Shown here piece after piece: positions 3,278 to 38,429 of a DNA stretch of 50,003 nt (position 1 is the first letter of the stretch; each line of letters begins with the position of its first letter). The notes below the pieces were generated by a model, which saw nothing but the letters and a program-made list of their open reading frames with translations, had not been told where the DNA came from and ran no database searches. A program made the position numbers and the translations under genes. This stretch comes from an uncultured bacterium (lineage in GTDB: Bacteria > Patescibacteriota > Minisyncoccia > Phycocordibacterales > CAINVO01), in contig CAINVO010000034.1 of NCBI GenBank assembly GCA_903854195.1, positions 1-50,003 of the forward strand, read 5' to 3'.

Positions 3278-3330
3278 TTGTTTGTGATGAATATTGTCAT
3301 GTTTTTCAAACTTTGTAAAGGTGTGGTAGG

Positions 3331-3429: not shown

Positions 3430-3433
3430 TATA

Positions 3434-9620: not shown

Positions 9621-9683
9621 AGATAAGGAGTGTCTCTTGAACGGGTTAGGTTTTACGCTTAGTGAAAGAGACACTTCTTATCT
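9621..9683 (+). repeat. Foldback element family B, copy 1 (degenerate core)
   Basis: 18-bp arms (17/18) around GAACGGGTTAGGTTTTACGCTTAGTGA; ends 2 nt from rnc stop. Confidence 0.85.
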
Positions 9684-17671: not shown

Positions 17672-17783
17672 AAATAATAAAACACCTTTTAGAGGGGCTC
17701 ACGGAGGCCGACGGGCCGAGTGTGAAGGAAAAAGTCAGCAGACTTTTTACCTGTACCCTATAAAAGGTGTTTTATTATTTTTA
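17669..17783 (+). repeat. Foldback element family A, copy 1
   Basis: 23-bp perfect arms beginning at the dnaE TAA; core GGGGCTCACGGAGGCCGACGGGCCGAGTGTGAAGGAAAAAGTCAGCAGACTTTTTACCTGTACCC. Confidence 0.93.
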
Positions 17784-17794
17784 ATGTAGAACTA

Positions 17795-18959
17795 TTACGC
17801 TATCAAACCACGATTCTTCATGTTCTCAATTTTAAACTGAGCAGCAAGACTTTGAGAATTTGATGTTGAAACATTTCCAGCAAGTTGAGCTTTGCGATTC
17901 TTACGTGCAATGAATATGTAAGTCATGAATGCACTCCACATTAGAAGTCCTAGGATAAATAGACCAACTTTCAAGTTGAAACTAATACCAGTTGCGGGCA
18001 CTTGATTTAGAAAGACACCAGCGACAGGAGTACCATTAGTAGGTGTGATATCACGAGTGACAGTTACACCAGCAGTGTTAATGTTTCCAACATTTGTGTT
18101 ACAACTTCGAGAGATGGACTGACCATCTGTAGATGTGATAGTAACTGTTGCTGTTTTGTATCCAGCTGTTGCATACATACCTGTAATACTTTGACCATTT
18201 CCATAAAGGTTATCTGATCCTGTCCAAGAATAACTGAATGATCCGCTTCCACCTGATGCAGTTGCTGACCAAGTTACTGGAGTATTAATTCCACTTCCTG
18301 TGTAAGAAACTACACAAGATCCACTCATTGCTGAATAGTTTGTAGCATTATTTCCATAATATCCATTTGGATAGTAAACACCATTGTTGTAATAGTTAAC
18401 GGCTAACTGATTATTACTATTGTTTCCATTATTATTGTTATTGTTTGAAACTATTGTTGTATTGTTTGTACTCCCAGAAGTTGTTCTTTGTGGAATATAA
18501 ACGTAGTGACTTGCCTGAGGCATATAAGTGTAACCACCGCCTGTAGAATATCCACCATTGTATGAGTAACCATGTGAAGCACATGATGAACAAGAAGATC
18601 CTGAACTATATGAACTAGTTGGTACGTATGTATCGTAGTTGGAAGTTCCTGAATATGAAGGGGTGTATGTATGTGTATGTATCGTAATTTGATGTACCAG
18701 AACTTGAGGGAGTATATGTGTAAGTATCATAGTTGGATGTACCTGAACTTGATGGAGTGTAAGTATCATAGTTGGATGTACCTGTATCATATGTATCGTA
18801 GTTGGAAGTTCCAGTATCAAAAGTATCATAATTAGATGTACCGTAATCTACTGAATCCCCTCCACCAGCATAAACTTTTACAGACAACCCGACAAAAACA
18901 ATTGAAAACACCATTATTACTGTAGTGATTTGAATTATTTTATTTAGTATATTTTTCAT
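17795..18959 (-). CDS. Repeat-rich surface protein (about 387 aa) with signal peptide, Ig/PKD-like domain and VPATG-TM-basic tail; frameshifted at about 18665-18682
   Basis: ORFs 18615..18959 and 17795..18829 carry the same GTSNYDTY repeat in different frames, switching within ACATACACATACATACAC. Confidence 0.85.
18628..18843 (-). repeat. Six intragenic GTSNYDT(Y/F) peptide repeats
   Basis: Repeated GG(T/A)AC(A/T)TCNAA(C/T)TA(C/T)GATAC units with variable spacers. Confidence 0.9.
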
Positions 18960-19020
18960 AAATTTTTCGTTAATGTTTAACCGTCAAATAGAATATCTCT
19001 TAAAATTATTTATTGATTAC

Positions 19021-19049
19021 ATTATATACTATATATTAAATAAAGTCAA
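19021..19049 (-). promoter_or_regulatory. Sigma70-type promoter for the repeat surface protein
   Basis: TTGACT-17nt-TATAAT. Confidence 0.7.
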
Positions 19050-19065
19050 TAGTTATTTAATTAAA

Positions 19066-19096
19066 AAGGGCAGCCGTCGTATTGACGTCTGCCCTT
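19066..19096 (-). terminator. Intrinsic terminator
   Basis: AAGGGCAG..CGTC / GACG..CTGCCCTT with T-tract on minus strand. Confidence 0.75.
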
Positions 19097-19113
19097 CTTC
19101 CACATCCTTATAC

Positions 19114-19893
19114 TTACTGAATGTAGGTTGAGAACCATTCGGTTCCGCGATTCCGTGACACCCTGACCGATTTCCAGTCAGGCCCATACTTGTTGATTAC
19201 CGACTGAGGTAATGCGCAGTCTGCCATAATCCCACCATTGTGACCAACTAACGCCGTCACCATGCGAGGACCTTCACCCTCGATGTTCAATGTGAGTCTG
19301 GCAGTTGTGAAGCCGCCATCGTATTTTGGGGCCAAAGTCCCCGCATTGACCATTGTCATCCTCGGCTTGGCCACCAGTCTTTCGACATTGGGCCGTCCGG
19401 GGGGGAGAACTTCTGGTTGCTGGCGATCGTCATCAACCCCAACTCCGACGAACTGCCGGTCATCGATAACCTTCCTTTGGGGAAGATCGGCGATTGCTGA
19501 GTAGGCGTAGAGCCCTGCCCAAAGAACCAGCATCAAACCGAGAAGCACCAATACCAGCACTCCAAACCCTTCCAGTACTTGACGGAGCGTTGTCCGACGA
19601 GTCGTTGTTGTGGTTGTCCGTGTTGCCCGAGGGGCAGACGGTGGAGGTGTTCCTAGATCTGGCATCGTGTTGTGCACATGCACAACAACGGGTTGCTGAG
19701 CGGCTGCTGCTTGACCTTGCGGGCGAGGAGTAGCTGCTGCGGCTGGTGTTGCAGGAGTTCCGGCAGCGGGTGCTGTTGGAACGTTTGTTGCGGCGGCGGG
19801 AGCGTTTGCACGACCACCACCACGACGAGGATTATTTCCAGTTGCCATTATCATTTGCGCCGTTATCGGGCGACTTGGTTTGTGCTTTCGCAC
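19114..19893 (-). CDS. Single-pass membrane protein with Ala/Pro/Thr-rich N-terminus (start uncertain)
   Basis: Low-complexity N-terminus, one TM helix (GFGVLVLVLLGLMLVLWAGLYAY), visibly GC-rich; own promoter and terminator. Confidence 0.7.
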   Translation of the reverse strand: MRKHKPSRPITAQMIMATGNNPRRGGGRANAPAAATNVPTAPAAGTPATPAAAATPRPQGQAAAAQQPVVVHVHNTMPDLGTPPPSAPRATRTTTTTTRRTTLRQVLEGFGVLVLVLLGLMLVLWAGLYAYSAIADLPQRKVIDDRQFVGVGVDDDRQQPEVLPPGRPNVERLVAKPRMTMVNAGTLAPKYDGGFTTARLTLNIEGEGPRMVTALVGHNGGIMADCALPQSVINKYGPDWKSVRVSRNRGTEWFSTYIQ

Positions 19894-19965
19894 TTTGTTT
19901 TAAAGGAGCGTTAGTTGGTGACCCTATTGGTCGTACTTGTTATTTTCCAATCTAACTATGCTACT

Positions 19966-19993
19966 ATTATAGCACAATACATACTTTTGTCAA
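19966..19993 (-). promoter_or_regulatory. Consensus sigma70 promoter
   Basis: TTGACA-16nt-TATAAT with extended -10 TG. Confidence 0.8.
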
Positions 19994-20041
19994 GCGATTA
20001 TAAAGTGCTATGACTGTTACATTTGAGACCAATTTTACAGC

Positions 20042-20782
20042 CTATATTATAGGGCTTTTATCAACAAAGTCAGCTTGTACAACATAGCGATCCGTTTTTT
20101 TACCAAAACTATCACACGTCGAAAGTGTAAGCATAGGGCTAGTTTTATCAAAGTCTACCCAAGAATTATTCTCATTTTGCAAAACTACAGTTCGCACCTT
20201 ATATACATAATGTGTGCTACTTGAATAAACATCTATAATATCGCCGGCTGCAAGCTTATCTAATCCATTAAAAGCCTTGTAAGCTTTATTATTTACGATT
20301 TTAAAACCTGTACTATGTCCAAATAGAAACATATTTCCTGATCCTGGAGTGCCAGACCCTGGGTAATGAACAACGCCTTTTGAAAGCTCTTGGTCCAAGT
20401 AGTCAACATCAGTAGTGTTTGGGTTACGGACAACAATATCAGTTCCTGATTTAATAATCACAACCCGAAGAGGAATATCACCTACTTGTATTTTTTGGGC
20501 CTTATTCTGAGCATTATTTAATACATTTTGGTCTGTAGTTGTGGTAACAGAATTATCCCCTTTTATCACAGAAAGTGACCATGCGTTCAAATTATCAAAA
20601 AAGTTAGTGGAAGTATCTTCTTGAAACTCACTTGGAACAAACCCAATTATATACAGGACTGTAAAGCTTAAAATAAAAATCGGAATAAAGAAAAGTCCGA
20701 ATTGAAACTCTGGATATTTTAAAAGATGTTTCCAAATTGTCCTTATTTTACTATCCTTGTTGTTACTCATATTAGTTGACAT
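20042..20782 (-). CDS. Sortase family protein
   Basis: N-terminal TM; GNMFLFGHS (His), LTLSTC (Cys), DRYVV (Arg) catalytic triad pattern. Confidence 0.9.
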   Translation of the reverse strand: MSTNMSNNKDSKIRTIWKHLLKYPEFQFGLFFIPIFILSFTVLYIIGFVPSEFQEDTSTNFFDNLNAWSLSVIKGDNSVTTTTDQNVLNNAQNKAQKIQVGDIPLRVVIIKSGTDIVVRNPNTTDVDYLDQELSKGVVHYPGSGTPGSGNMFLFGHSTGFKIVNNKAYKAFNGLDKLAAGDIIDVYSSSTHYVYKVRTVVLQNENNSWVDFDKTSPMLTLSTCDSFGKKTDRYVVQADFVDKSPII

Positions 20783-20831
20783 TTTAACCGATTATGATAT
20801 AATACTGTGTAAATAATAACTATACAAATTT

Positions 20832-21968
20832 ATGGAAACTAACAAATCATCCGGCGCTCGCACATTAGTTCGTGCCATCATTATAGCAGGAATTCTCATC
20901 ATTCTCTTGGTGATGAGTTATGCTGTGATTAAAATCGTACCAAAAGCATTTTCAACTTTGGCTTCTGCCAATATTTCTCTAGGTACACTGTTTTCTCCAA
21001 AAGGCGCAGCGACTTCAACAAACGCAATTGCAACTAGCACAACATCAGTTAAAAATAATGGAATAAGTGGTCCTGGTGGATTTACAGTTATTTCAACAAG
21101 TACTCAGGCAACAACAACTACAAAAAATACTTCAAGCTACAACAATCAAAGTAGCAACACTTATGTAAACCATCCTGTAGTTCAGAACGGCTTACCAGAT
21201 CTTGCAATTGCAATAACTTCAAAGGGTATCCAAGATCCTACAACTGGAAAATTTATTGAGACCAATAACGTCCAGCCAAATGATCGTGTGATTATAAATT
21301 TTATTGTAACAAACCAAGGTTCTCGTGCATCAGGGTCATGGACTCTACGCGCTCAACTTCCAGCATATGATGCCGCTGATCGTCTAAAAACAATTAATGG
21401 TGTATCTATCCCAGCAGGGCAAGCTATTAGTGGCCAAGTATATTTTGACCGCGTGCAGATTGCTGGCAACAATAATGTCATTTTGACAATCGATCCAAAT
21501 GGCTCAATTTCAGAATCAGACAAATCAAACAATGTCGCTCAGGTTGTAATCACTTCAACAGGAACAAACACAGGTACTACTTATACTACTGGAACTATTA
21601 CAAACGGTTCCCTATCAGACCTAAGCGTAAATATTATTGCAACAGGTATTCTTGATTCAAGTAATAATTTTGTACAGACAACTCCTCGATCCGGTCAGCG
21701 CCCAGCTGTACGTTTCCAAGTGGTGAACAATGGCGGAAGTGATACTGGAACATGGTACTTCAACGCTTTCATGTCTGGTCAAACATCGTATACTTCCGAC
21801 CCTCAACCAACTCTAGGTGCTGGTCAAAAATTCATCTACACTATTGGATTCAACTCTGTAAATTACGGAACAAATGCAATCACAATAAACGTAGATCCTA
21901 CAAACATTGTTCGAGAATCAAATGAAGGAAATAACACCGCAAGTGCAAGTGTTTATGTTGGGAACTAG
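20832..21968 (+). CDS. Membrane-anchored protein with two CARDB-like Ig domains
   Basis: N-terminal TM, Thr/Ser linker, two repeats (PDL...F.V.N.G...DP...I.ES...NN). Confidence 0.85.
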   Translation: METNKSSGARTLVRAIIIAGILIILLVMSYAVIKIVPKAFSTLASANISLGTLFSPKGAATSTNAIATSTTSVKNNGISGPGGFTVISTSTQATTTTKNTSSYNNQSSNTYVNHPVVQNGLPDLAIAITSKGIQDPTTGKFIETNNVQPNDRVIINFIVTNQGSRASGSWTLRAQLPAYDAADRLKTINGVSIPAGQAISGQVYFDRVQIAGNNNVILTIDPNGSISESDKSNNVAQVVITSTGTNTGTTYTTGTITNGSLSDLSVNIIATGILDSSNNFVQTTPRSGQRPAVRFQVVNNGGSDTGTWYFNAFMSGQTSYTSDPQPTLGAGQKFIYTIGFNSVNYGTNAITINVDPTNIVRESNEGNNTASASVYVGN

Positions 21969-21972
21969 TTAG

Positions 21973-22094
21973 TATATAAAACACAAAAAACACCTTTTAT
22001 CGGGTACAGGTAAAAAGTCTGCTGACTTTTTCCTTCACTCTCGCGCGGTCGCGCTCCGAGGGCCCCTCTAAAAGGTGTTTTTGTATTTTATATA
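21973..22094 (-). repeat. Foldback element family A, copy 2 (core reversed)
   Basis: About 26-bp near-perfect arms; core reverse complement GGGGCCCTCGGAGCGCGACCGCGCGAGAGTGAAGGAAAAAGTCAGCAGACTTTTTACCTGTACCC. Confidence 0.93.
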
Positions 22095-22182
22095 ACTACC
22101 TAAGTAAAACCCACAGTTACTCAACGGTGTTGAACTTTCGGGGTGGTTTTTTATTTGAGAAAATTGAAAGTATTAATGATGT

Positions 22183-22301
22183 TAAATAAAATACTAAATG
22201 TTTCTTTTTGGAGACTTGCAAGGCTCGACGGAGCGAGCACGAGGAAAATCCTAGTAAGGATTTATCCGTACTCCAAAAAGAAACATTTAGTATTTTATTT
22301 A
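22183..22301 (+). repeat. Foldback element family A, divergent copy
   Basis: 31-bp perfect arms including the gyrB stop codon; core GCTC-GACG-GAGC and GGA-AAATCCT-AGTA-AGGATTT-A-TCC mirrors the family A fold. Confidence 0.85.
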
Positions 22302-24518
22302 GATATCAATACTTGCTAACTTTGCATTCGACTGAATAAATGACTTTCGTGAAGGCACGTCATTACCCATCAAAATATCGATAACCTTATCGGCTTCAGC
22401 ACCGTCAGCAATAGTAACGCGCTTCAATACTCTTTTTTCAATATCCATAGTTGTTTCTCCAAGCTCATCAGCGTTCATTTCTCCAAGACCTTTGTATCGT
22501 TGAACGTGAATCTTACTTTTCTTTGCTTCAGATGCAGCATCTTTTCCTTTAGCACCTTTTCCTTTTGCTGTTTTTTCAGAATCTTCTTCATTTACACTTT
22601 CTTCTGTTTCCTCATTTTCGTTTTGATTATCTGAGTCTTGATCACCTTCTTCAATTTCTTGTATTTCGTTTGCATCAACACCTTCTTGTTTAAAATATTT
22701 TGAAAGTTCTTCATCACTGTAGAAATAGTGTACGTCTTTTCCTTTCTTCACTTTGAAAAGTGGAGGTTGAGCAATATACACATGACCTGCGTCTATAAGT
22801 GGGCGGAAATATCTGTAGAAAAGTGTAAGTAGGAGTGTACGAATATGGGCGCCGTCAACATCGGCATCTGTAGCAATGATAAGTTTGTGGTATCGAAGCT
22901 TTGTAATATCAAATGTATCTCCAATAGCGGTACCGAAAGCAACCACTAGATTTTTAATTTGTTCTGATGCTAACATTTTATCAAGGCGGGCTCGCTCGAT
23001 GTTTAGAATCTTTCCTCTCAAAGGAAGCACGGCCTGAGTACGACGATCGCGTCCCATTTTCGCTGTACCTCCAGCAGAATCTCCCTCTACAATAAATAGC
23101 TCTGATTCCTCAGCTCTTTTACTCTGACAATCCGCAAGCTTTCCAGGAAGAGTCATGCCTTCAAGAGCTCCCTTTCTAAGAACTGAGTCCTTTGCGGCTT
23201 TTGCAGCCTTTCGGGCACGCATTGCAAGCAAACCTTTGTTTATGATTGCTTTAGCGTCCTCTGGATTTTCCTCGAAAAACTCTGCGAAGGCTTCGCCGAA
23301 AGCAGCAGATGTTGCACCTTGTGCCTCCGTAGATCCAAGCTTAGCTTTTGTTTGTCCTTCAAACTGAATATCAGGCATCTTTACAGAAACCACAGCCACA
23401 AGACCTTCCTGCACATCATCACCAGTCAAAGTATCTTCATTATCTTTGATAATGTTATTTTTCTTGGCGTATGAGTTAATGGTACGAGTCAGAGCTGTTT
23501 TAAAACCGGCAATGTGAGTACCACCTTCACTGTTGTAAGTGTTGTTAGCGAAAGCCACAATCTTTGGGTTGATATCATCTACGTACTGTAGAGCAACCTC
23601 AACACCAACGTCTTTTGCGTGATTAGCTTCTTCACCATTACTACCTGTTGCGAGAACTTCTTTTTCTACATAGAAAATATTTTTATGAATTGGCTTTTGA
23701 GTGTGATTGTAAAAGGCAACAAGTGATCGAAGACCTCCTTCAAAATAAAAAGTCATTTCTGGCACATCAATGCACTCCTCTTGGAAACTATCCTTTAAGT
23801 AGAAAGAAGATTCATCTAGCAAACTTTTTGCAAGATGCTTTTGATTTTTTTCATCAAGACCTCTTGCATCTAGAATATTTATTTGCAAACCTTTTACAAG
23901 ATATGCTTGCTGGCGCAAATGAGCAATTATTTTTGCCCACTCAAAAACGATACCTTCCTTGAAGATTTCTGCATCGGCTTTAAACAAAACGATTGACCCA
24001 TGAGCTTTTGTTTTACCAACCTGTTTTACTTTGTATTGAGGTATACCAATCTTATATTCCTGGGCATAGATTCCACCATCTTTATGAACCGTAACTTTTG
24101 TATGAACTGACAGCGCATTTACAACTGAAGCTCCCACTCCATGCAAACCTCCAGAGACTTTGTATCCATCACCACCGAACTTTCCTCCGGCGTGAAGTGT
24201 AGTCATAATAGTTTCAAGAGCTGAAACTTTTGTTTTTGAATGCATGTCAACAGGAATTCCTCGTCCGTTGTCTACTACTCTAATGTATCCATCAGGAAGA
24301 AGTGCAACTTCAATACGGTTACAAAAACCACCCATGGCTTCATCACGTGAGTTGTCGAATATTTCCCAGATCAAATGATGCAGACCATCCGGTCCTGTTG
24401 TACCAATATACATTCCAGGTCGCTTTCTTACAGGCTCTAGACCTTCAAGAACTGTAATAGAATCTGCTCCGTAACTACTAGCTTTTTTTATTGTTTTTTC
24501 GTCTTCTTTTTTTGCCAT
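22299..24518 (-). CDS. gyrB: DNA gyrase subunit B
   Basis: LEGLEPVRKRPGMYIG, LHAGGKF, EGDSAGG, PLRGKILN, DADVDG, RYKGLGEM; start reset to ATG 24518. Confidence 0.95.
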   Translation of the reverse strand: MAKKEDEKTIKKASSYGADSITVLEGLEPVRKRPGMYIGTTGPDGLHHLIWEIFDNSRDEAMGGFCNRIEVALLPDGYIRVVDNGRGIPVDMHSKTKVSALETIMTTLHAGGKFGGDGYKVSGGLHGVGASVVNALSVHTKVTVHKDGGIYAQEYKIGIPQYKVKQVGKTKAHGSIVLFKADAEIFKEGIVFEWAKIIAHLRQQAYLVKGLQINILDARGLDEKNQKHLAKSLLDESSFYLKDSFQEECIDVPEMTFYFEGGLRSLVAFYNHTQKPIHKNIFYVEKEVLATGSNGEEANHAKDVGVEVALQYVDDINPKIVAFANNTYNSEGGTHIAGFKTALTRTINSYAKKNNIIKDNEDTLTGDDVQEGLVAVVSVKMPDIQFEGQTKAKLGSTEAQGATSAAFGEAFAEFFEENPEDAKAIINKGLLAMRARKAAKAAKDSVLRKGALEGMTLPGKLADCQSKRAEESELFIVEGDSAGGTAKMGRDRRTQAVLPLRGKILNIERARLDKMLASEQIKNLVVAFGTAIGDTFDITKLRYHKLIIATDADVDGAHIRTLLLTLFYRYFRPLIDAGHVYIAQPPLFKVKKGKDVHYFYSDEELSKYFKQEGVDANEIQEIEEGDQDSDNQNENEETEESVNEEDSEKTAKGKGAKGKDAASEAKKSKIHVQRYKGLGEMNADELGETTMDIEKRVLKRVTIADGAEADKVIDILMGNDVPSRKSFIQSNAKLASIDI

Positions 24519-24633
24519 AAAAATAAAAAGCATTAAGGCTTTATTGGGCAAAGTATACCAAATTGAGCCTAAAACTGCTAGGAAAGAAGGGTTGCGATTT
24601 AGCTAAAATTGGGGTATAATAGCCTCTATAAAT

Positions 24634-25938
24634 ATGGACATCTCGATAGTGCCAATTTTGGCAACAATCACGGGTAGTGTGACATATGTAGCCCTATTTG
24701 GGGCCCTATATTTTCAGGTTTTTCTTCTAATTACTTTTATAGAAAAAAGAAAGACATTTAGAGCGGAGGAACATTTTCTAGATAAAAGAAACAGTGACAA
24801 GAAGCTTGGAATTTCAAATGAATCTTTAGACTACCCAAGCGCAACAGTTATTGTCCCCTGCTTTAACGAGGAGAAGACAGTCGAAGGAACAATTAGATCA
24901 TTACTCCAATTGGATTATCCAAAAGATAAACTAAAAATACTTATAATAAATGACGGCAGTAAGGATAATACTGGAAAAGTAATAGATACATTTTCAGGAA
25001 ATCCTCAGATTGAAATCTACCACAAAGAAAACGGCGGAAAATACACGGCACTAAACTTTGGCCTTTCGAAAACTCATACAGAAATAGTTGGATGTTTGGA
25101 TGCTGACTCTTATGCTGATTCACAAGCTCTTAAGATTATTGCTTCATATTTTGATGACAAAAGTGTTATGGCAGTTACACCTTCAGTTGTAATTAATCAC
25201 TCTAGAAATGTTTTACGACAAATTCAAAAGGCCGAGTATAATCTCGGTATTTTTGTTAGAAAGGTTTTAGGAATGATTGATGCAATTCATGTTACTCCTG
25301 GGCCATTTTCTTTCTTTCGCCGTGAAGTTTTTGAAATTATTGGGAACTATAAACATGCTCATAACACAGAAGACCTAGAAGTTGCATTTCGTATGCAGAA
25401 GCATCACATGAAAATAGTAAACGCACACAAAGCCTTTGTTTATACAGTTGGACCAAACACTGTAAAAAAACTTTACAGACAACGTGTGAGATGGACTAGT
25501 GGGTTTCTTGCAAACCTCGTGGACTACAGAGAAATGATCTTTAAGAAAAAATATGGTGATCTTGGTATGCTCATACTTCCTATGACTATTTTTACAATAG
25601 GCACAACACTGATTGTAATTGGTCTATCAATAATAAATTTTGTGATATCACTCCACAAGGAATTTGTTAAGTTAGAATCCGTTGGTATGCAACTAAAAAT
25701 GCCTTCGTTTAATTTTGATTGGTTTTTTATGAATACAAGTGCAATTGTGATAATAGCCCTAGGACTATGGCTTTTAACTGCAGCTGTGATAGTATCTGGC
25801 CAAAGAATTGGTACAGGAAAGACAAGAATAACAATAGATGTATTCTACTTTCTACTCTTATATTCTTTCATTGCACCATTTTGGCTTATAAAATCAGTCT
25901 ACAACACTACATTTTCCAAAACAGCACCATGGAGATAA
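24634..25938 (+). CDS. Processive GT2 glycosyltransferase (PgaC/cellulose-synthase-like)
   Basis: DGS.D, DAD, TED, QRVRW motifs with flanking TM helices. Confidence 0.9.
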   Translation: MDISIVPILATITGSVTYVALFGALYFQVFLLITFIEKRKTFRAEEHFLDKRNSDKKLGISNESLDYPSATVIVPCFNEEKTVEGTIRSLLQLDYPKDKLKILIINDGSKDNTGKVIDTFSGNPQIEIYHKENGGKYTALNFGLSKTHTEIVGCLDADSYADSQALKIIASYFDDKSVMAVTPSVVINHSRNVLRQIQKAEYNLGIFVRKVLGMIDAIHVTPGPFSFFRREVFEIIGNYKHAHNTEDLEVAFRMQKHHMKIVNAHKAFVYTVGPNTVKKLYRQRVRWTSGFLANLVDYREMIFKKKYGDLGMLILPMTIFTIGTTLIVIGLSIINFVISLHKEFVKLESVGMQLKMPSFNFDWFFMNTSAIVIIALGLWLLTAAVIVSGQRIGTGKTRITIDVFYFLLLYSFIAPFWLIKSVYNTTFSKTAPWR

Positions 25939-25991
25939 AATATTATAAATTAGGCTGTTATTTAAAGATTAAATAAAATAAACATAAAAAA

Positions 25992-26837
25992 ATGAACAAC
26001 GATCAAAACCCTAACCCGCCACACCACACAGAACCTCACCAACATGTTCGTGCACCTTTTGAATGGCAAAAATATTTAATTGCCTTTCTTATAACAGCTA
26101 CTATTTTTTTAAGTGCAGTTTATTTTAATAACTACTTTGATAATAAAAGGGTTGAAAATATCAAGTCAATTCAAGATCAGATTTCGCTAGATATTCTTTC
26201 CTCTGAGACCCAATTTGATTTGCTCAAAGAAGCAACATGTAAAAGTGTGGACGACTCCGTATTATCTCAAGAGCTAAACACTTTGGCCAGCAAGCTCTCT
26301 TACATGGAAGAAAATGACAGTACAAATACTGACCTACCTCAACTTAAAAAATATTACTCTTTACTCGAAATCAAAGATTTTCTACTTATGAAACAGCTAG
26401 GACAGAGATGTCCTTTCAAACCGGTTTCTATACTATATTTCTATTCTCAAAAATCAGACTGTCCTAACTGTGAAAAAATGGCCTATGTTCTAACCTACCT
26501 ACGTCAACAGTATCCTGAAGTGCGTATATACTCATTTGACTATAACCTAAACTTATCCGCAGTTGATACAATGAAAAAGGTTTATTCTCTAAACGATACA
26601 GAACTCCCAGCAGTCATTGTTGGAGATAATGTATATCATGGATTCATAAGTGTAGACGACATGAGAAAAGCTGTACCTGAACTAAAGAGCTTAGATAAGA
26701 AACATGCAGCTGATGCCGCTGCAGCAGCAAAAGAAGCCGCACAACAAGCATCTAGCACTCAAAGCACATCTCAATCATCAACATCCAAAAATAGTACATC
26801 TAACACAAACTCCACATCTACTGGCTCTAGTAATTAA
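25992..26837 (+). CDS. Membrane-anchored protein with thioredoxin-like CxxC domain
   Basis: N-terminal TM; ILYFYS..DCPNC..., ELPAVIV; Ser/Thr tail. Confidence 0.7.
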   Translation: MNNDQNPNPPHHTEPHQHVRAPFEWQKYLIAFLITATIFLSAVYFNNYFDNKRVENIKSIQDQISLDILSSETQFDLLKEATCKSVDDSVLSQELNTLASKLSYMEENDSTNTDLPQLKKYYSLLEIKDFLLMKQLGQRCPFKPVSILYFYSQKSDCPNCEKMAYVLTYLRQQYPEVRIYSFDYNLNLSAVDTMKKVYSLNDTELPAVIVGDNVYHGFISVDDMRKAVPELKSLDKKHAADAAAAAKEAAQQASSTQSTSQSSTSKNSTSNTNSTSTGSSN

Positions 26838-27277
26838 TATTTGTAAAACTTCCCAGCATTATAATTATTTAAAATTTTCTGACTTGGAGGAAAAATTGGT
26901 GATGGTAATTTATCCAACGGAAACCATTTCCATTCAGTTATTTCATCTGGCTCCATTACTTTTGGCTCATATGGATAATTTTCACAAAATAAACCGACAG
27001 TAACAAAGTGAGCATCTGGAACAATGTCGTTTGTAAGACTTACAACCTTTAAGTTGTCGATGGAAATTTCTACCCCAGTTTCTTCTAGAACTTCTCTCTT
27101 TGCACCCTCTTCAAAACTTTCTCCGAAGCGCAATTTACCACCCGGCATAGTCCATGTACCTTCACCGTGCAGCTCACTGTCTGCTTTTAACGGATCAGCA
27201 TGTCTTTTTCCAAGTAAAAGTTTCCCATCCTTTAAGACCATCACCCCGAATCCGTTACCTATCTTTAGATTCTCCAT
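26834..27277 (-). CDS. Nudix hydrolase
   Basis: PGGKLRFGESFEEGAKREVLEETG; start reset to ATG 27277 because the track start lies inside the tRNA. Confidence 0.92.
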   Translation of the reverse strand: MENLKIGNGFGVMVLKDGKLLLGKRHADPLKADSELHGEGTWTMPGGKLRFGESFEEGAKREVLEETGVEISIDNLKVVSLTNDIVPDAHFVTVGLFCENYPYEPKVMEPDEITEWKWFPLDKLPSPIFPPSQKILNNYNAGKFYKY

Positions 27278-27280
27278 AAA

Positions 27281-27356
27281 TGGAGCCACCTCTCAGATTT
27301 GAACTGAGGACCTACTGTTTACAAAACAGTTGCTCTACCAACTGAGCTAAGGTGGC
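27281..27356 (-). tRNA. tRNA-Thr(UGU) with encoded CCA
   Basis: GCCACCT/AGGTGGC acceptor stem, D-arm GCTC/GAGC, anticodon loop TTTGTAA, T-loop TTCAAAT, 3' CCA. Confidence 0.97.
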
Positions 27357-27456
27357 TTTAATTTTTGACTATCATACCATGTAAATTTACACGAATCGGC
27401 CTAACACTTTCCCCTCTTTTTCATATTGCCGCTACAGAAATATATACTATTTGGAA

Positions 27457-27873
27457 TTATTTGTCCAACATTCCAGCGACTTTTTGGTCAAGATTATCTA
27501 TATTTCTCTGAGCTTCTTTATGCTCCTCAATATGTTTAAGAAAGAAAGAAACTGAACCCCTATTTGTTGGAATATCTGTACGACAAACAACCTTCATGAA
27601 TTTTTTCCACCATTTATTTAAGTTTATTATTGATCTCACAAAAATACCCTCAACCGTTGTAAGAATATTATGACCAATATTATGCCATGAACCCGCAGTT
27701 AACAAATGTGAAAATTTATTTATAAATCCAGAAAATGAACCTAGCCATTTATCTGTCTTATTAAAAGTAACAGAGACAACTTTTCTACCTGTCTGTAGTT
27801 CAGAAATCTTGTTTCCAAGAAGAGCCACTAGACCGACAAGCGACAAGGACAATGTAATGTATAGATAAATCAT
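27457..27873 (-). CDS. Hypothetical membrane-anchored protein
   Basis: 138-aa ORF with N-terminal hydrophobic helix. Confidence 0.7.
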   Translation of the reverse strand: MIYLYITLSLSLVGLVALLGNKISELQTGRKVVSVTFNKTDKWLGSFSGFINKFSHLLTAGSWHNIGHNILTTVEGIFVRSIINLNKWWKKFMKVVCRTDIPTNRGSVSFFLKHIEEHKEAQRNIDNLDQKVAGMLDK

Positions 27874-27881
27874 AAGAGTAA

Positions 27882-27908
27882 GCGCGCGAGGGCAAAGCCC
27901 TCGCGCGC
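27882..27908. other. Very GC-rich perfect hairpin after tsf
   Basis: GCGCGCGAGGGC-AAA-GCCCTCGCGCGC; no strong U-tract. Confidence 0.8.
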
Positions 27909-27914
27909 AGTTAA

Positions 27915-28505
27915 TTATTTCTCCAAAACCCCGAACCGCACAAACTTTGCAACCTCGATCTTTTCACCAAACTTCTGAATAGCGTTCTCAATTAATTGAC
28001 TAATTGTGAGATCTGGATTTTTGATAAACGGCTGTTCAAGTAAAATCTTATCCTGAAAATATGAAGCCAACTTCCCTTCTAAAATCTTTGCTTTCATTTC
28101 TTCTGGTTTTCCTTCAACTTCCTTTTCAAAAACTTCAGTAGCTTTTTGTTTGGCTTCCTCACTTATCTCATCTTTACTAAGATATGTAGGACAAGCCGCT
28201 GAAATATGCATGGCAATATCATAAGCAAGTTTTTTAAACTCTTCATTCTTTGAAACAAAGTCTGTCTCAGAAACAAGCTCAACCATGGCACCAATGGTGT
28301 CATTTGAGTGAATATAAGCAGCTACAGTACCAGCTCCTAGAGTACGGTCTGATTTCTTTGAGGCAATGTCTGATCCTTTCTTTCTAAGTAGGATTAAAGC
28401 CTTCTCCTTGTCACCACCAGCCTCTTCTAGAGCTTTTTTACACTGCATAACAGAAATACCTGTCATATCTCGTAATTCCTTAATTTGTTCAGTAGTTATA
28501 GCCAT
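27915..28505 (-). CDS. tsf: Elongation factor Ts (short form)
   Basis: IKELRDMTG..MQCKKAL, ETDFV; downstream of rpsB. Confidence 0.97.
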   Translation of the reverse strand: MAITTEQIKELRDMTGISVMQCKKALEEAGGDKEKALILLRKKGSDIASKKSDRTLGAGTVAAYIHSNDTIGAMVELVSETDFVSKNEEFKKLAYDIAMHISAACPTYLSKDEISEEAKQKATEVFEKEVEGKPEEMKAKILEGKLASYFQDKILLEQPFIKNPDLTISQLIENAIQKFGEKIEVAKFVRFGVLEK

Positions 28506-28630
28506 ATGATTAAATTTATATAAATTATATGTAAATATTTTCTTATCCTTATAATATAACCGCCATTCTCATATTATTGGACCTATAGGATATATAATAA
28601 CAAAAAACGACAAATGTCGCCTTGTAGTTA

Positions 28631-29341
28631 TTAACCTATTTTCTTTGCGCCTTTGTATGCCTCTACAAACTTCTCCATGAAGAAAGTTACGCTTGAAACA
28701 GAAGAGTCGTTTCCAACAATAGCGTAGTCAACTTTTTTAATATCACAATCAGATCCACAAAGAGCAATTACGGGCACACCCATCTGTTTTGCCTCTGCTA
28801 CAGCGATAGCTTCTTTTTTAGAATCAATAACAAACATTGCAGCTGGCATTTTTGTCATAGAAGAAAGTCCTGAGAAAAGTACATCTAAACGAACAATTTC
28901 TCGGTCGATCAAAAGTCTTTCTTTTTTAGTATATTTTACAAGTTCACCCTTTTCTTTCTGAGAAACAAGGTCATGAAGCTTTTCAACTCGCTTACGAATA
29001 CTGTCGAAATTAGTTAGAGATCCTCCAACCCATCGTCCAGCAACAAAAGGCATATCTAGTGATTCACCTGCCTTTCGAGCAATAGCCTGAGCTTCGCTCT
29101 TTCCACCAACAATCAAAATTTGTTTGTTTTCTGAAGCAAGCTTCTTTACAAATTCAAGAGCTCCGTTTAATGACTCTTCTGTTTTTTCTAGATTAAAAAT
29201 TTCTATCTTGTTTTTAGCACCGAAAATAAAAGGCTTTGTAGATGGGTGACGGCGTGACTTAATAAAGCCAAAATGAGCTCCAGCCTTAAAAAGGGAGTCC
29301 ATCAGTTCGCCTGTTTTCTTTACTGTTGTTTCATTTGTCAT
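28631..29341 (-). CDS. rpsB: 30S ribosomal protein S2
   Basis: AGAHFG, RWVGGSLTN, AVAEA, GND; start reset to ATG 29341. Confidence 0.97.
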   Translation of the reverse strand: MTNETTVKKTGELMDSLFKAGAHFGFIKSRRHPSTKPFIFGAKNKIEIFNLEKTEESLNGALEFVKKLASENKQILIVGGKSEAQAIARKAGESLDMPFVAGRWVGGSLTNFDSIRKRVEKLHDLVSQKEKGELVKYTKKERLLIDREIVRLDVLFSGLSSMTKMPAAMFVIDSKKEAIAVAEAKQMGVPVIALCGSDCDIKKVDYAIVGNDSSVSSVTFFMEKFVEAYKGAKKIG

Positions 29342-29533
29342 GTGTTCGGATATAGTAGCAAAAAGGGTGATTTTATGCAATACCAGGCTAAATATGGCTA
29401 AAACAATCCCTGCCAATATGTTTTCTCACTAAAGCACATAGACAGGGATTGTTTATCCAATTTGCCTCCTATTGCATGATCAACCTTTCAAAAATGTGAC
29501 GGTTGGCATATAATCCACGTAGTCAAACAGTAT

Positions 29534-29767
29534 ATGAAAAATATAAAAAAAGGAATTTACAGAAGCTTTAAAAGTCCAGAAATGACCTATGAGGTTCTTG
29601 GTGTCGCTTCGCACAGCGAAAACCCAGAGCAAAAGCTCGTGGTTTACAAAGCACTTTATGGCGAGAAAGAACTATGGGTTCGCCCTGCGGAAATGTTCTT
29701 GGAAATTATTGACCGTCCGGAACACAACTACAAAGGTCCCAGATTCCTTATGATTGAAGAAAAATAA
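29534..29767 (+). CDS. DUF1653-like small protein
   Basis: Y.VLGVA.HSE...VVYKALYG...WVRP.EMF...PRF pattern. Confidence 0.85.
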   Translation: MKNIKKGIYRSFKSPEMTYEVLGVASHSENPEQKLVVYKALYGEKELWVRPAEMFLEIIDRPEHNYKGPRFLMIEEK

Positions 29768-29780
29768 TAAAACTAGGGGA

Positions 29781-29848
29781 AAAAATCCTTATATTCTTTT
29801 TGCGAGTTAGCGGAACGCTTTAGCAAAAAAAAAAATATAAGGGTTTTT
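29781..29848 (+). repeat. Foldback element family B, copy 2 (variant core)
   Basis: Imperfect arms of about 23 bp around GAGTTAGCGGAACGCTTTA between convergent DUF1653 gene and prfA. Confidence 0.75.
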
Positions 29849-30815
29849 ATTTTTCCAAACCAGCCTGGTACTGCTCCAAACTCTGAATAATAGCATCCAT
29901 TTTACCCAAGAAAATACCTTCAATATTGTGCCAAGATTCTTTTATACGGTGGTCAGTCACGCGATCCTGAAGAATGTTATACGTACGGATCTTCTCTGAT
30001 CTATCCCCTGTTCCTATTTGAGCCTTTCTGTTGGCAGCAAATTTTTTGGCATCTTCTTCTTGTTTCATTGCTTCAAGTTTAGCCAAAAGAATAGACATTG
30101 CCTTTTCACGATTTTTAAGCTGACTGCGCTCACTAGTTGAACGAACATCAATACCTGTTGGCTTGTGAATAAGACGTACAGCTGTTTCAACTTTATTAAC
30201 ATTTTGACCACCAGCACCTCCAGATCTAGAGAATTCCATTTCAATATCTACAGGATTAATTTCTATACTGATTTTTTTACGAATAGGAAGAATGGCAACT
30301 GATGCAGTAGATGTGTGTACGCGTCCCATTTTTTCTGTTGCAGGTACTCGCTGTATACGATGCACTCCTGTTTCAAAGCGGAGTAATCTGTAAACATCAA
30401 GACCGTGTATTTCAATGGAGGCTTCTTTATAGCCGCCGACCGCGCTTTCTGACTCGGAGACAATGTGACTAGTCCAACCGCGGGAGGCGGCAAAAGCTCG
30501 ATACATGTCAGCTAGCTCTCGAGCAAAAAGTGAAGCTTCTTCCCCTCCGGCACCGGCACGAACTTCAAGAATAATTTCTGATGGAAACTCCTCTTCTTTT
30601 TCTTCAGCCTTCAAGATATCCTGCATTTTTTCCAACAATGTCTTTTGTTGTAGATCTAGGTCAACAAGTTCGGCGTCTGCCATTTCTTTAAAAGCAGGAT
30701 CACTTTCAGCCATAATCAAAACTTCTCCGCGTTGTCGACTGAGTTTTTCATACTCACCTGCCCAATAATTAGTCTTGGGATTTTGTTTAAATTGTTCTAG
30801 GTTTATTTCTGACAT
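29847..30815 (-). CDS. prfA: Peptide chain release factor 1
   Basis: PAT anticodon motif (VPATE), [18 protein letters not shown]. Confidence 0.96.
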
Positions 30816-30896
30816 TTTATAAATTTCTTATTTAACACACACTTGGGATTTTTACTATCACTTATTAGCTCTTACATTCTACCAATTTTTCCAAAC

Positions 30897-30927
30897 AAAA
30901 AAACCACCCAGGATGTGGTGGCTTTTT
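30897..30927 (-). terminator. Hairpin terminator after rpmE
   Basis: CCAC stem flanked by A and T tracts. Confidence 0.55.
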
Positions 30928-30937
30928 GTGAGCTTAG

Positions 30938-31183
30938 CTATTTTTCTGAACTAGTGTCTGAAACTGCTTTTGCTTTTGGTTTTGCACTTGACTGACGAGC
31001 CTTAAACTTTTCGACACGTCCAGCTGTATCTAGTGATTTCTCAAGTCCTGTGTAGAAAGGATGGCAATTACTGCAGATTTCAATATTTATCTTCTCTTTT
31101 GTACTACCAATAGTAAACACATGCCCACAAGCACATGTGGAGGTAGAATCTGCATAAAACTTTGGATGTATGTCTTTTTTCAT
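30938..31183 (-). CDS. rpmE: 50S ribosomal protein L31 (Zn-binding type)
   Basis: MKKDIHP, Cx[17 protein letters not shown]. Confidence 0.97.
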
Positions 31184-31243
31184 ATTTTTATAGGTTTTTA
31201 GAGTATAACAGAAAGTTCTAAAAAGGCAACTCCCTCTTATTTT

Positions 31244-32668
31244 TTACTGATTACCAGCCAAAATATCAATATTTCCTTGAAGCGCCGTTGCCTTTGCAAT
31301 AACCTGATCACCATAAAATTTATTACTACTATTACATGAACTTCCTGAATAATACTTACAAGCGGCGTTTCGTTCAGCTGTATAGCCACCATTTCCAGCC
31401 CCAAGATCAGATAAATACAGGGCAGAAGCCATGAAAGCATCTTTTGGATTCCAAGGATCTGGCTCTGATGAAATACCGAGGGAGGTCTTGAGACGTGAAA
31501 TATTCAGAGCCCAAGTAGAAGCGATAAACTGGGCCGGACCCATAGCCCCACCATAACCAACACTGAAAGGACAAGATACGCGAGTTTTGTAAGGGTCTCT
31601 GCCAAGAGCACCTGTAATGGCAAGAAACGGTTGAACATCTCGACTTGGCTTCATGATGTTTTTAACAGCCACACCTGTGCTAATTTTTATACCACTTCCA
31701 TCTGTAGCATTTGTCAGATAACATGCACCCACGTTTGAGCCAAGGTTACTTTCTTGTTGAATAACTGCGAGTAGAAATGCGGGTCGGACACCAGTCGCGG
31801 CAGAAGCAGCTTTTGCATAAACAACAGCATCTCCGAATTGAATTGAAGGTGCATCACGAAGCGAAAACAAAGCTGTTCGAATTTTTGAAGCCTGTGACTG
31901 TTTGTCTGCAATTGTAGATTGATAATTTTTCTGTTGAGTTTTGTTTAAACTTAAAAGCTTCTTTTTTTGGTTCTGAGCTGCCGTGATGTTTTGCTTTTCT
32001 GTTTCTACGTTCACTTCAATAGCCTGTTCCTGCACTCGCTTATCACTAAGTTGCTGCTTTGTTTGAACATTCTGATCTTTTGAAGATTTTATATCGCCAA
32101 GAATTGATCTTAATGACTGATTTATTGAAGCAAAGGAGTCAAGATCAATAAAAAACTTAGACAGATCTCCTCCACTAAGAAAAGCCTCCGCTAAAGAAAA
32201 ATTTTCGAGTTGGTTTGCCTGATTTATGATACGTCCAAGAGAACCTTGATCATGCCCTATCTGATCTGTAAGGGCATTAATGGTGTTATTAGTTACAGCA
32301 ATATTTTTACTAAGATTATCTATAGCAAGTTTATGAGCTTTGATTTTTAACTGAGCCTGTTTTACCTGTAGATCCAAAATTGAAATATCTCTACTGATTG
32401 ATGAAGCTTGATTTTGTGTAGTCGTAAGCTGACTAGTAACATCTGTGATTTGATTTTCCAAATCAGTCAAAGCTGTTTGACAAGCAATTTTTTGAGCTGG
32501 GGTATCACACTGAACACTCCCATTTGATGCCGCAGCTGATTGAATTTGTACTGCTGTCTGCGCGAAAGCTGGTTGCAAAAAAGAAACCGGATTAAGCACC
32601 AGTGAGAGTAATATTATTGAGATTGAAAATGATAGAAAAATGCTCCGTTTAAATAACGCGATAGGCAT
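31244..32668 (-). CDS. Secreted coiled-coil protein with C-terminal lytic transglycosylase-like domain
   Basis: Signal peptide, long Gln-rich coiled coil, QES catalytic motif, GAMGPAQF, DPWNP.DA; start reset to ATG 32668. Confidence 0.85.
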   Translation of the reverse strand: MPIALFKRSIFLSFSISIILLSLVLNPVSFLQPAFAQTAVQIQSAAASNGSVQCDTPAQKIACQTALTDLENQITDVTSQLTTTQNQASSISRDISILDLQVKQAQLKIKAHKLAIDNLSKNIAVTNNTINALTDQIGHDQGSLGRIINQANQLENFSLAEAFLSGGDLSKFFIDLDSFASINQSLRSILGDIKSSKDQNVQTKQQLSDKRVQEQAIEVNVETEKQNITAAQNQKKKLLSLNKTQQKNYQSTIADKQSQASKIRTALFSLRDAPSIQFGDAVVYAKAASAATGVRPAFLLAVIQQESNLGSNVGACYLTNATDGSGIKISTGVAVKNIMKPSRDVQPFLAITGALGRDPYKTRVSCPFSVGYGGAMGPAQFIASTWALNISRLKTSLGISSEPDPWNPKDAFMASALYLSDLGAGNGGYTAERNAACKYYSGSSCNSSNKFYGDQVIAKATALQGNIDILAGNQ

Positions 32669-32727
32669 AGCCGATATTATACCAATTTTTAAAGAGGAAA
32701 AACAGCTGCAGAACAATGTGTAAACAC

Positions 32728-32857
32728 AATTTAAAAACAAAATAAAAACACACCTTAGGGGGGCTCTCGGAGCGCGACGGCGCGAGAGTGAAGGAAAAAG
32801 TCAACAGACTTTTTACCTGTACCCGATAAAGTGTGTTTTTATTTTTGTTTTTAAATT
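32728..32857 (+). repeat. Foldback element family A, copy 3
   Basis: About 29-bp near-perfect arms; core GGGGCTCTCGGAGCGCGACGGCGCGAGAGTGAAGGAAAAAGTCAACAGACTTTTTACCTGTACCC. Confidence 0.93.
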
Positions 32858-32863
32858 AACACA

Positions 32864-33508
32864 TTACTCAGCAGCTGATTCTCCCTCTTCTTCTTTCTTA
32901 CCTTTCTTCTCAGAGATTTCAATTGCTGATAGATCAACTGGAGTAGCTTCTTCTTCCTTCTCCTCCTTTGGAGCAGCAGTTAGAGCGATAACTTCTTCAG
33001 CTTCTGTAATAAGAGTAACTCCTGCAGGCAATTTGATTTCATTTGCCAATACTTGGCTATCAAATGTAGCGAGTGTAGAAATATCTACTGTTAACTCATG
33101 TGGTAGGTCCTTAGGCAAAGCTTCAATTTCAACTTCGTGCAATACTTTTACAAGTACTCCACCAAGCTCTTTGACAGCTGGAGCAACACCAACGAATTCC
33201 AATGGAACGTGAACTTGAACTTTTTTACCTTTTTCAAGAATATAAAAGTCAACATGTTTAACGACTCCTGTTACAGGATCAACGTAAACATCATGGATAA
33301 GTGCCTCGTGGTCCTCGCCAACACCTTTTAGGGTGATAACGGAAGATTCGCCTGCCTCTTTCCATGCCTTTAGAAAATCAACTTTAGGCACCGAAATAGA
33401 CGTTGACGGCTCTTTACGACCATAAAATACTGCTGGGATAATGCCTGAGGCGCGCATTTCATCCAGTTTCTGGGCGATATCTCGCTTTACAACGTTTAAT
33501 GTAGTCAT
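32864..33508 (-). CDS. rplY: 50S ribosomal protein L25 (long Ctc form)
   Basis: IPAVFYG, HVDFY, VPLEFVG..GGVL; acidic tail; start reset to ATG 33508. Confidence 0.95.
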   Translation of the reverse strand: MTTLNVVKRDIAQKLDEMRASGIIPAVFYGRKEPSTSISVPKVDFLKAWKEAGESSVITLKGVGEDHEALIHDVYVDPVTGVVKHVDFYILEKGKKVQVHVPLEFVGVAPAVKELGGVLVKVLHEVEIEALPKDLPHELTVDISTLATFDSQVLANEIKLPAGVTLITEAEEVIALTAAPKEEKEEEATPVDLSAIEISEKKGKKEEEGESAAE

Positions 33509-33588
33509 GCGAGCCATCATAACCTATTTTGCTTAAAAATCAAGTCTTTATTTAAACAAACCTTCAAAAAATATGAGGTCTATGTACC

Positions 33589-38178: not shown

Positions 38179-38205
38179 TTTATTTATTTAAATTATACCA
38201 AAGTA

Positions 38206-38277
38206 TTGCAAATATATACACGACCTTTTTACTAAGCGCTTCGCTAACCCGTAAAAAGGTCGTGTATATATTTGCAA
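38206..38277 (-). repeat. Foldback element family B, copy 3 (core reversed)
   Basis: 27-bp perfect arms; 38232-38252 is the reverse complement of ACGGGTTAGCGAAGCGCTTAG. Confidence 0.93.
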
Positions 38278-38334
38278 CCATTTAGCGTTATTCAACAAAC
38301 CAGGCATTGGATTTTTGACGAGAATAATTCTGAG

Positions 38335-38412
38335 GTAGCCCTGTAGGAAAATATCTTTTTGAACGGGTTAGCGAAGCGCTTAGAGAAAAAAGATATTTTC
38401 CTACAGGACTAC
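38335..38412 (+). repeat. Foldback element family B, copy 4
   Basis: 26-bp arms (25/26) around GAACGGGTTAGCGAAGCGCTTAGAGA. Confidence 0.93.
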
Positions 38413-38429
38413 TTTAGTTATTATCTTTA

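Follow-up and report, generated by a model that had tools for sequence, protein, structure and literature searches.

How does the end of a ribosomal protein gene come to be mirrored on the far side of an inserted element? The question is raised by rplY, which encodes ribosomal protein L25/TL5, in a 50,003-nt stretch of DNA from an uncultured patescibacterium (contig CAINVO010000034.1 of assembly GCA_903854195.1; the whole stretch is called the window below). Directly 3' of rplY, positions 32692-32889 form a hairpin of about 200 nt, which fills nearly the whole spacer and takes in the last 26 nt of the gene. The hairpin belongs to a family of repeats with a conserved, structured core, and it is compared here with other copies from the genome of the window (G000, 814 kb, 94% complete), from its congener G001, and from a set of 151 genomes of the same order as G000. 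The relatives' records are labelled Paceibacteria, Paceibacterota, Parcubacteria or Nomurabacteria, within the candidate phyla radiation (CPR). On the strength of these comparisons, the outer stem of the hairpin is probably a product of copying, in which one flank of the element would have been written in inverted form onto the other side by fold-back or template switching at the DNA level.

The gene lies on the minus strand at 32864-33520. Taken from the list of open reading frames (ORFs), it encodes 218 aa, is matched by the Pfam families Ribosomal_L25p and Ribosomal_TL5_C, and ends in KKGKKEEEGESAAE before its stop codon, a C-terminus common to relatives. Read in the same sense (all its parts are on the minus strand), the hairpin begins inside the gene. 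The coding part of the gene-side arm (32864-32889) consists of the stop and the last 23 coding bases, and the fold, a significance test, a swap control and its ancestral state in the congener and relatives all mark it as the putative template of the mirror copy. It is followed by a non-coding, A-rich part (32825-32863), whose inner ~20 nt recur in the other A-type copies of the family, as judged from the sequence, alignments and inverted repeats. Next comes the conserved core (32758-32824), a three-way junction recognized from core matches and the consensus fold. The inner part of the far arm (32717-32757) is U-rich and carries a 5-nt mini-palindrome that is extra relative to the gene-side arm, as seen in the sequence, the fold and an arm alignment with unpaired bases. 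Finally, the outer part of the far arm (32692-32716) reads as an inverted copy of the rplY end, a description that draws on a shuffle test, the empty site of the congener and the swap control.

The rplY-sense RNA of 32680-32900 is predicted to form one hairpin whose outermost pair joins 32889 to 32692. Its folding energy is -95.8 kcal/mol against -44.9 ± 4.6 for shuffled sequences (z = -11.1), none of 200 shuffles being as stable, and the opposite strand gives -82.2 kcal/mol. Gapped alignment of the two arms (65 and 68 nt) yields 54 Watson-Crick pairs and, in the mRNA sense, 5 G-U and no A-C; a further 4 positions are mismatched in other ways, and 7 bases are unpaired. Over the coding 26 nt there are 20 matches to 32692-32716 with a single 1-nt gap, a level reached by 0/20,000 shuffles of the distal 25-mer and by 1/20,000 random 25-mers from the window. 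The arms thus reach 26 nt into the coding sequence (CDS), and when the ends of other genes are put in place of that of rplY, the reach is at most 7 nt and averages -4.2 (20 controls). The pairing of the rplY end with the far arm is real and beyond chance, and the first-pass annotation of the window, which had described a mirror running about 26 nt into the CDS and over the stop, was correct in this. An ungapped "CDS-end mirror" score applied to rplY relatives was dropped as insensitive, since the true rplY mirror scores only 8 by it.

Pattern and BLAST searches detect four near-identical cores in G000 and a more diverged fifth after gyrB. The core contains two hairpins, one with an A5GUC/GACU5 stem and the other GC-rich with a 4-nt loop and an internal loop, and the five G000 cores align as a three-way junction with 36 consensus pairs, 17 of which show compensatory changes. 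A covariance model built from these five aligned cores (R1) scores the rplY copy at 111.6 bits (E = 1.6e-27) and matches 8 loci in G000; a ninth match (C24, E = 0.31) was discarded as probable coding sequence from which the fold is absent. R1 matches are found in 52 of the 151 genomes of the order, with up to 26 per genome. Each copy has the same layout: a conserved core of ~65 nt, an inner stem borne by the family, and an outer stem specific to the locus. The inner ~20 nt of the stem are common to the four A-type copies of G000, and the copies in the window lie between housekeeping genes. In an Rfam scan of the window one tRNA alone passes, and the best sub-threshold matches are plant miRNA hairpin models (34 bits against 211). 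A literature search, with supplementary files left aside, found no paper describing this CPR hairpin repeat.

The locus-specific arms extend well past the part that the family shares. They were measured in 88 copies from eight genomes, 8 from G000, 20 from G001, and 60 from six further genomes, the last being the best-scoring among the R1 matches listed. The arms run a median of 15 nt past the modelled 18-bp stem, against 0 in 880 chimeric controls in which the outer 5' flank was swapped for that of another copy. An extension of at least 10 nt is found in 60/88 copies and 54/880 controls, and one of at least 20 nt in 30/88 and 14/880, respectively; extensions vary continuously between -3 and 50 nt past the R1 model. 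Arm identity between copies is 0.53-0.61, about that of unrelated AT-rich DNA, and the two arms within a copy match at 0.80-0.92. The flank that serves as template can be on either side of the core.

The 59 cases used to measure reach into genes have an ORF of 150 codons or more whose stop is no more than 70 nt from the element, and the stop is counted in the reach. In the controls, the gene end was exchanged for that of another case (1180 in total, 20 per case). The arms reach at least 10 nt into the CDS in 25/59 cases against 81/1180 swapped ends, and at least 20 nt in 14/59 against 12/1180, which bears out the extension into genes that the first-pass annotation had suspected. That annotation had extended the rplY description to four other genes of the window, with mixed results. 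The second A-type copy (17648-17804, minus strand), between convergent dnaE and a 344-aa ORF, agrees well: its arms reach 24 nt into dnaE, where the control maximum is 5, and 10 nt into the other ORF. The B-type copy after gyrB (22160-22323, minus strand) does have 31-bp perfect arms that start exactly at the stop codon, but its imperfect extension covers 25 nt of the CDS against a control maximum of 28. After khpA, the hairpin at 3316-3444 (minus strand) has arms (3316-3352 and 3408-3444) that are 86% complementary and cover the stop and 8 coding nt, although its conserved 55-nt core is that of a different family, here called "Z". For rpe, the likeness is not confirmed by this measure. Two hairpins follow this gene (38188-38417, minus strand), each closing on the same 18-26-nt loop motif ("Y" family) and in opposite orientations, but their arms end 13 nt before the rpe stop, and the gene is absent among reaches of at least 8 nt.

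Plain hairpins provide a further comparison. The same gapped measure was applied to all G000 hairpins with a stem of at least 14 bp, in place of an ungapped census that undercounted imperfect arms. Of the 16 hairpins whose loops measure 46-90 nt, 5 have a CDS reach of at least 10 nt, against 1 of the 42 with loops of at most 12 nt; for a reach of at least 20 nt the numbers are 3 and 0, respectively. The longest stems in G000 are those of core-bearing hairpins, and among plain hairpins, ungapped stems reach 30 bp in 0/74. Since CDS reach is frequent in core-bearing hairpins and rare in plain ones, growth into genes goes with the cores and is not a general habit of terminators in G000.

Which of the two arms is the copy can be read from orthologous gene ends. 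At the rplY site of G001 the gene order is the same and the element is absent; rplY ends in KKEEEVPAAE before its stop and is followed by a 66-nt spacer, and the rplY genes of more distant relatives end in EE(V/A)PA(S/A)E. No R1 element is found after rplY in 73 metagenome loci (searched out of 80 kept) or in 80 loci from the genome collection. The best metagenome relative has 69% protein identity, so it is not a strain-level allele, and the genome collection and the public runs likewise gave no genome closer than the congener and no allele from another strain. Because the rplY end is shared and the sites of relatives are free of the element, the gene end is ancestral; the insertion would be young and the far arm derived. 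The empty G001 site has no counterpart to the stop-proximal 14-nt mirror. In two other genomes, an R1-type element is found on the opposite side of the gene, ~45 nt upstream of the rplY start (L228, and L257 at 556-656).

Other genes point the same way. The end of dnaE is ESVKVLQ in G000 and ESVKVLE in G001, where no element follows the gene. In G001, the last codons and stop of rpsR (ending in LLPFVAR; LLPFVSR in G000) are mirrored perfectly over 16 nt across the element, and rplL and a HIT-like gene of the same genome behave likewise. A reach of at least 10 nt occurs in 21 further cases, and a G000 orthologue exists for 18 of these. In seven of these 18 pairs the genes end at the same position with similar residues (HIT-like, ftsZ-like with the ending AFLRRSK[IL]K, EF-G, a small basic protein, gyrB twice, and one more), and in two they differ by one or two residues. 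The gyrB gene bears an element downstream in three families (G000, G132 and G070), in which the inner arms are unrelated to one another and the far arm in each case mirrors the local gyrB end; that of G070 is a decayed mirror of ~45 nt with a perfect 11-mer kept from the conserved FIQSN codons. The filled and empty comparison for gyrB rests on G132 and G070, and a DNA search for the G001 orthologue returned element matches only. To judge from these alignments, wherever orthologues are comparable (rplY, dnaE, gyrB, rpsR, ftsZ, EF-G) the coding arm is ancestral, and hence the far arm would be the copy.

The first-pass annotation had already supposed that the distal arm was copied from the target, and this idea gains support from the ancestral coding arm of rplY, dnaE and seven further genes, from a CDS reach greater than in the controls, and from the lack of such reach in plain terminators. 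Its argument was that coding sequence cannot arrive with an element. This agrees with a coding arm that is usually ancestral, but it does not cover every case. At one G001 locus (L064, C6 ~7640-7790), two convergent genes, one of them YidC-like, both end in AVR followed by the same stop and 3' sequence. It is the two arms of a single palindrome that encode these shared tails, which are missing from both G000 orthologues. A copy can therefore overwrite coding sequence.

The course of events that we favor is as follows. The spreading unit would be the three-way-junction core together with an inner inverted repeat of ~20-30 bp, and the outer stem peculiar to each locus, with the stretch that spans the rplY stop, would be written at the DNA level from the opposite flank. 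Copying could proceed through intrastrand fold-back priming or through template switching during replication, in either case nucleated by the element's own inverted repeat (the "quasipalindrome" process of Ripley and Lovett), and the same copying would keep the arms matched while their sequence drifts. In the events that survive, the coding side would act as template and the spacer would be written into, because overwriting a gene end is usually harmful; occasionally a copy would replace the C-terminal tail of a neighbor. Fold-back or template switching formed one half of the first alternative offered by the first-pass annotation, and it is the best-supported explanation, which we consider probable; the other half, that the core itself caps or primes, is unproven. 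We infer the enzymology, as well as whether copying comes with insertion or after it.

Palindromes of this length would also have to persist once made, and we propose that they do so because the lineage is without the SbcCD hairpin nuclease. In Escherichia coli, SbcCD cleaves palindrome hairpins. A search for SbcD (TIGR00619) finds none in G000, and among the 151 genomes of the order a single one is over the cut-off and five have matches with E ≤ 1e-5. The same search matched 13 of 14 reference genomes, 8 of them over the cut-off. SbcC is represented in G000 by a weak Walker-motif match only. From these profile matches, SbcD seems largely missing from the order.

The element is highly dynamic between congeners. 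For 12 of the 20 G001 copies a syntenic interval was located in G000, and none of these 12 intervals has the element; seven other sites were not placeable on one G000 contig, and one (L062) was left out as ambiguous. Eight of the 12 empty intervals have no hairpin of at least 14 bp, two have a plain terminator of at least this size, and two have another core family. What moves appears to be the core with its inner repeat, the flank-derived part being an addition. In genome G061, the copies (L188-L196) are a uniform element of ~115 bp with fixed 28-nt terminal repeats, and five of the seven evaluable copies are bordered by direct target duplications of 7-14 bp. The pairs of repeat ends in this genome are all ~97 nt apart, and none brackets a gene. 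In some G061 copies, the short sequences at the very ends seem exchanged with respect to the core, a hint of core inversion. In G020, a single terminal repeat underlies many of the arms, which are diverged versions of it, both arms having changed together. Outside G061, direct repeats of at least 6 nt at arm ends are not beyond chance (5/79 against 27/790 controls), and a search of G000 for the Y1 (RAYT/IS200-type) transposase PF01797 gave no match.

Several findings weigh against copying from the flank. The nine G061 copies examined have 28-bp perfect terminal repeats and no flank-derived extension. Copies with near-identical cores (nearest-neighbor identity of at least 0.97, n = 32) already have arms running a median of 12 nt past the model, and arm length is uncorrelated with an age proxy based on core similarity (rho = -0.02, n = 88). 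Such arms fit an origin at or soon after insertion; equally, core identity may be no clock. In 9 of the 18 orthologue pairs compared, the C-termini are variable tails from which the direction of copying is not readable, and the gyrB reach of G000, taken alone, is not beyond control. At the empty rplY site of G001, the outermost ~10 nt of the mirror have 8/10 complementarity, joining the purine-rich rplY end to a pyrimidine stretch before the -10 box of the next gene, and this outermost complementarity may be older than the element. Lastly, no single expansion event has been caught or reconstructed, and ancestral spacers are not alignable because flanking DNA at the nearest empty sites is only ~72-76% identical (~76% for rplY).

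Part of this evidence suits an explanation in which the integration reaction itself duplicates the target flank in inverted form, so that locus-specific arms are born with each copy. The long unique arms of copies with near-identical cores, the lack of a relation between age proxy and arm length, the absence of direct target duplications at the arm ends of 79 copies, and arm growth in core-bearing rather than plain hairpins would all be expected from it, and since neither a Y1 transposase nor another candidate enzyme was identified in G000, there is room for a novel mechanism. However, the G061 copies insert with fixed terminal repeats and direct duplications, as transposase-driven MITEs (miniature inverted-repeat transposable elements) do, many G020 arms are a diverged shared repeat and not flank copies, either side of the core can serve as template, and arm length is continuous. 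Coupling of copying to insertion is therefore unlikely in our view. In its full form, the proposal would make these elements a new kind of mobile DNA, whose terminal inverted repeats are made out of target sequence. Fold-back synthesis primed from the inner repeat would complete integration at a gene end, and the result would be a palindrome that is locus-specific at birth and able to rewrite neighboring 3' ends with no need for a conventional transposase. We regard this as improbable.

It is also doubtful that both arms pre-date the element, the core having landed in the loop of an existing hairpin such as a terminator overlapping the gene end. The elements do sit where terminators are expected, and the G000 terminator after the gene of locus L048 loosely resembles the arms of G001. 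The first-pass annotation had singled out arms at empty sites without the core as telling, and these are found in part: there is the 8/10 complementarity of the outermost ~10 nt at the congener's rplY site, and a plain terminator hairpin at two of the 12 empty sites. Two more of these sites have another core family. Yet the other eight have no hairpin of the minimum size, and the stop-proximal 14 nt of the rplY mirror are absent from the empty site. Plain G000 hairpins, as seen above, almost never enter coding sequence by 10 nt and lack the long ungapped stems, and the shared AVR tails of two convergent genes require a copying event.

Selection on RNA is the explanation that wobble polarity within the window would favor. 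Here the 3' UTR would have acquired its pairing over the stop through point mutations, with protection or processing of mRNA 3' ends as an example of the benefit, as in the second alternative of the first-pass annotation. In the window, G-U outnumbers A-C in the mRNA sense of each gene (rplY 5:0, gyrB 2:0, dnaE 4:1), and RNase III is encoded there, so that long stems would matter if transcribed. Cores are also more often sense than antisense to the abutting upstream gene (35 copies against 12). The earlier statement that most differences are G-U compatible is true of rplY (5 of 9 mismatches), but it does not extend to the family, in which outer-arm mismatches number 51 G-U and 52 A-C in the R1 sense and 22 and 20 in the mRNA sense of the overlapped gene. 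With the two about equal family-wide, the polarity seen in the window is only local, and the absence of a G-U bias speaks against selection of the outer pairing at the RNA level and for a strand-symmetric process at the DNA level. Besides, perfect coding mirrors of at least 16 nt are implausible by single substitutions, outer mirrors decay (gyrB of G070), and plain terminators have no such pairing. We consider RNA selection of the outer stem very unlikely, although the orientation preference may leave room for an RNA role of the core.

In public DNA runs X1-X4, assembled into short contigs over 17000-33500, contigs end inside palindromes at ~17758, 22031, 32751 and 32872. None of the short contigs listed bridges a palindrome, and these runs contain no join skipping an element and no empty or inverted allele. 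One low-depth contig has a 1-nt deletion at 32842. Such elements probably fragment short-read assemblies of these genomes. The breaks would suit a chimeric fold-back join made during assembly or amplification, but this is hardly credible as the origin of the hairpins, since 52/151 genomes, each assembled independently, have the same architecture, at hundreds of loci. It also turns up behind the same genes in different families, and its mirrors contain the mismatches and indels typical of evolved sequence.

How does the element relate to known repeats? Correia/NEMIS, ERIC, RPE, repetitive extragenic palindromes and bacterial interspersed mosaic elements (REP/BIME), and MITEs are multi-copy, intergenic sequences of ~100-200 bp, often found just after stops and forming hairpins when transcribed, and their conserved part is the terminal repeats. 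The CPR element is also multi-copy, ~100-200 bp long, intergenic and hairpin-forming, but here it is the central three-way junction that is conserved, and the outer stem is unique to each copy and mirrors local DNA. Compared with a classical MITE, the ends shared by the four A-type copies are limited to the inner ~20 nt, and fully conserved arms with target duplications occur only in G061. The REP/BIME systems work with RAYT, a Y1 transposase not found in G000. By the features tested, the CPR element is not REP/RAYT, Correia or any Rfam family, and only one subfamily is a textbook MITE. It also resembles bidirectional intrinsic terminators, being located after stops or between convergent genes, with an A-rich 5' arm and a U-rich 3' arm, and the empty sites often have ordinary terminators. 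Where an intrinsic terminator has a short GC-rich stem and a loop of 3-8 nt before a U tract, the place of the "loop" is taken here by a structured core of ~65 nt, closed by stems of 30-65 bp; a consensus terminator scan calls no site at the rplY element.

The closest likeness is to template-switch mutation, in which one arm templates the other and a stem is created, perfected or lengthened in one step, with possible effects on coding sequence and possible inversion of the spacer. In one study, template switching between inverted-repeat arms creates perfect stems in a single event, extends them and maintains them (PMC8794818). In another, on yeast strains, it lengthens inverted repeats of 7 bp to 25 bp and of 9 bp to 24 bp, and quasipalindrome correction is attributed to Ripley (1982) and Lovett (both cited in PMC13100816). 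The new sequence studied here is likewise the reverse complement of nearby DNA, in register with an existing stem. The differences are that copying is tied to a mobile, structured core, that it affects ~40% of those copies that lie beside gene ends, and that it reaches up to ~45 nt into essential genes in an order with SbcD over the cut-off in only 1/151 genomes. Fold-back inverted duplications, which a third paper gives as the main rearrangement in yeast without the Mre11 nuclease (PMC10622511), are a second parallel. In both, a 3' end would fold back at a short inverted repeat to copy the flank next to it, an outcome favored by absence of the Mre11/SbcD nuclease. The yeast events are large chromosome rearrangements, however, whereas the copies studied here measure 10-45 nt and are resolved to a normal chromosome. 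The process is a known mutational one that is unusually prominent here, and what sets this case apart is the mobile structured core, the frequency, and the reach into essential genes.

Other parts of the window deserve a brief description. Directly after the rplY hairpin (32666-32681, minus strand), the sequence reads as a TGnTATAAT-like -10 box (32676-32681, with TG before it) and the ATG of the next gene (32666-32668), although a consensus promoter scan calls no full promoter at this box. The gene encodes a secreted-looking protein of 474 aa for which a Pfam search gave no match. The third A-type copy (21966-22102, plus strand) begins at the TAG stop of a CARDB-domain gene. The 330-nt spacer between this gene and gyrB (21966-22323) contains in a row the A-type element, a plain GC-rich, terminator-like hairpin (~22108-22150), and the B-type element. 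The 344-aa ORF facing dnaE (17795-18829, no Pfam match) has degenerate tandem repeats of 30-49 nt at 18626-18837.

The two other core families have comparable layouts. The Z family, with its core of ~55 nt in long locus-specific stems, is represented by the khpA copy in the window (3316-3444) and by three copies elsewhere in G000 (C37:8863-8957, C7:14551-14663 and C43:1992-2090); the rpsR spacer has a Z element in G000 and an R1-type element in G001. The Y family has a conserved loop motif of 18-33 nt in long unique stems, at 38188-38417, 29781-29848 and 9621-9683 in the window and at C26:14061-14213 in G000, the last with 60-nt arms that go 32 nt into a gene. One R1-type copy (L169, G135:C98 ~7033-7159) has an extra small GC-rich hairpin within the second core helix, which suggests that the core tolerates nested insertions, and the orthologous site in its congener G020 has a copy with wholly different arms.

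To our knowledge, palindrome growth by flank copying has so far been inferred mostly from short events in yeast, primates and rRNA. The CPR repeat family would provide a large natural data set of palindromes that grow by copying their flanks, essential coding sequence included, and copying would explain why its stems are perfect and yet unique to each locus. Stems of this kind mimic RNA covariation, so "covariation" in an outer stem is not proof of a functional RNA. For the genes concerned, copying would be a way of rewriting C-termini and stop codons, with the AVR tails common to two convergent genes as an instance. If transcribed, long perfect stems over stops would be RNase III substrates, whose effects on mRNA 3' ends are testable. 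For this order of ultra-small bacteria, the tolerance of such palindromes may be linked to the near-absence of SbcCD.

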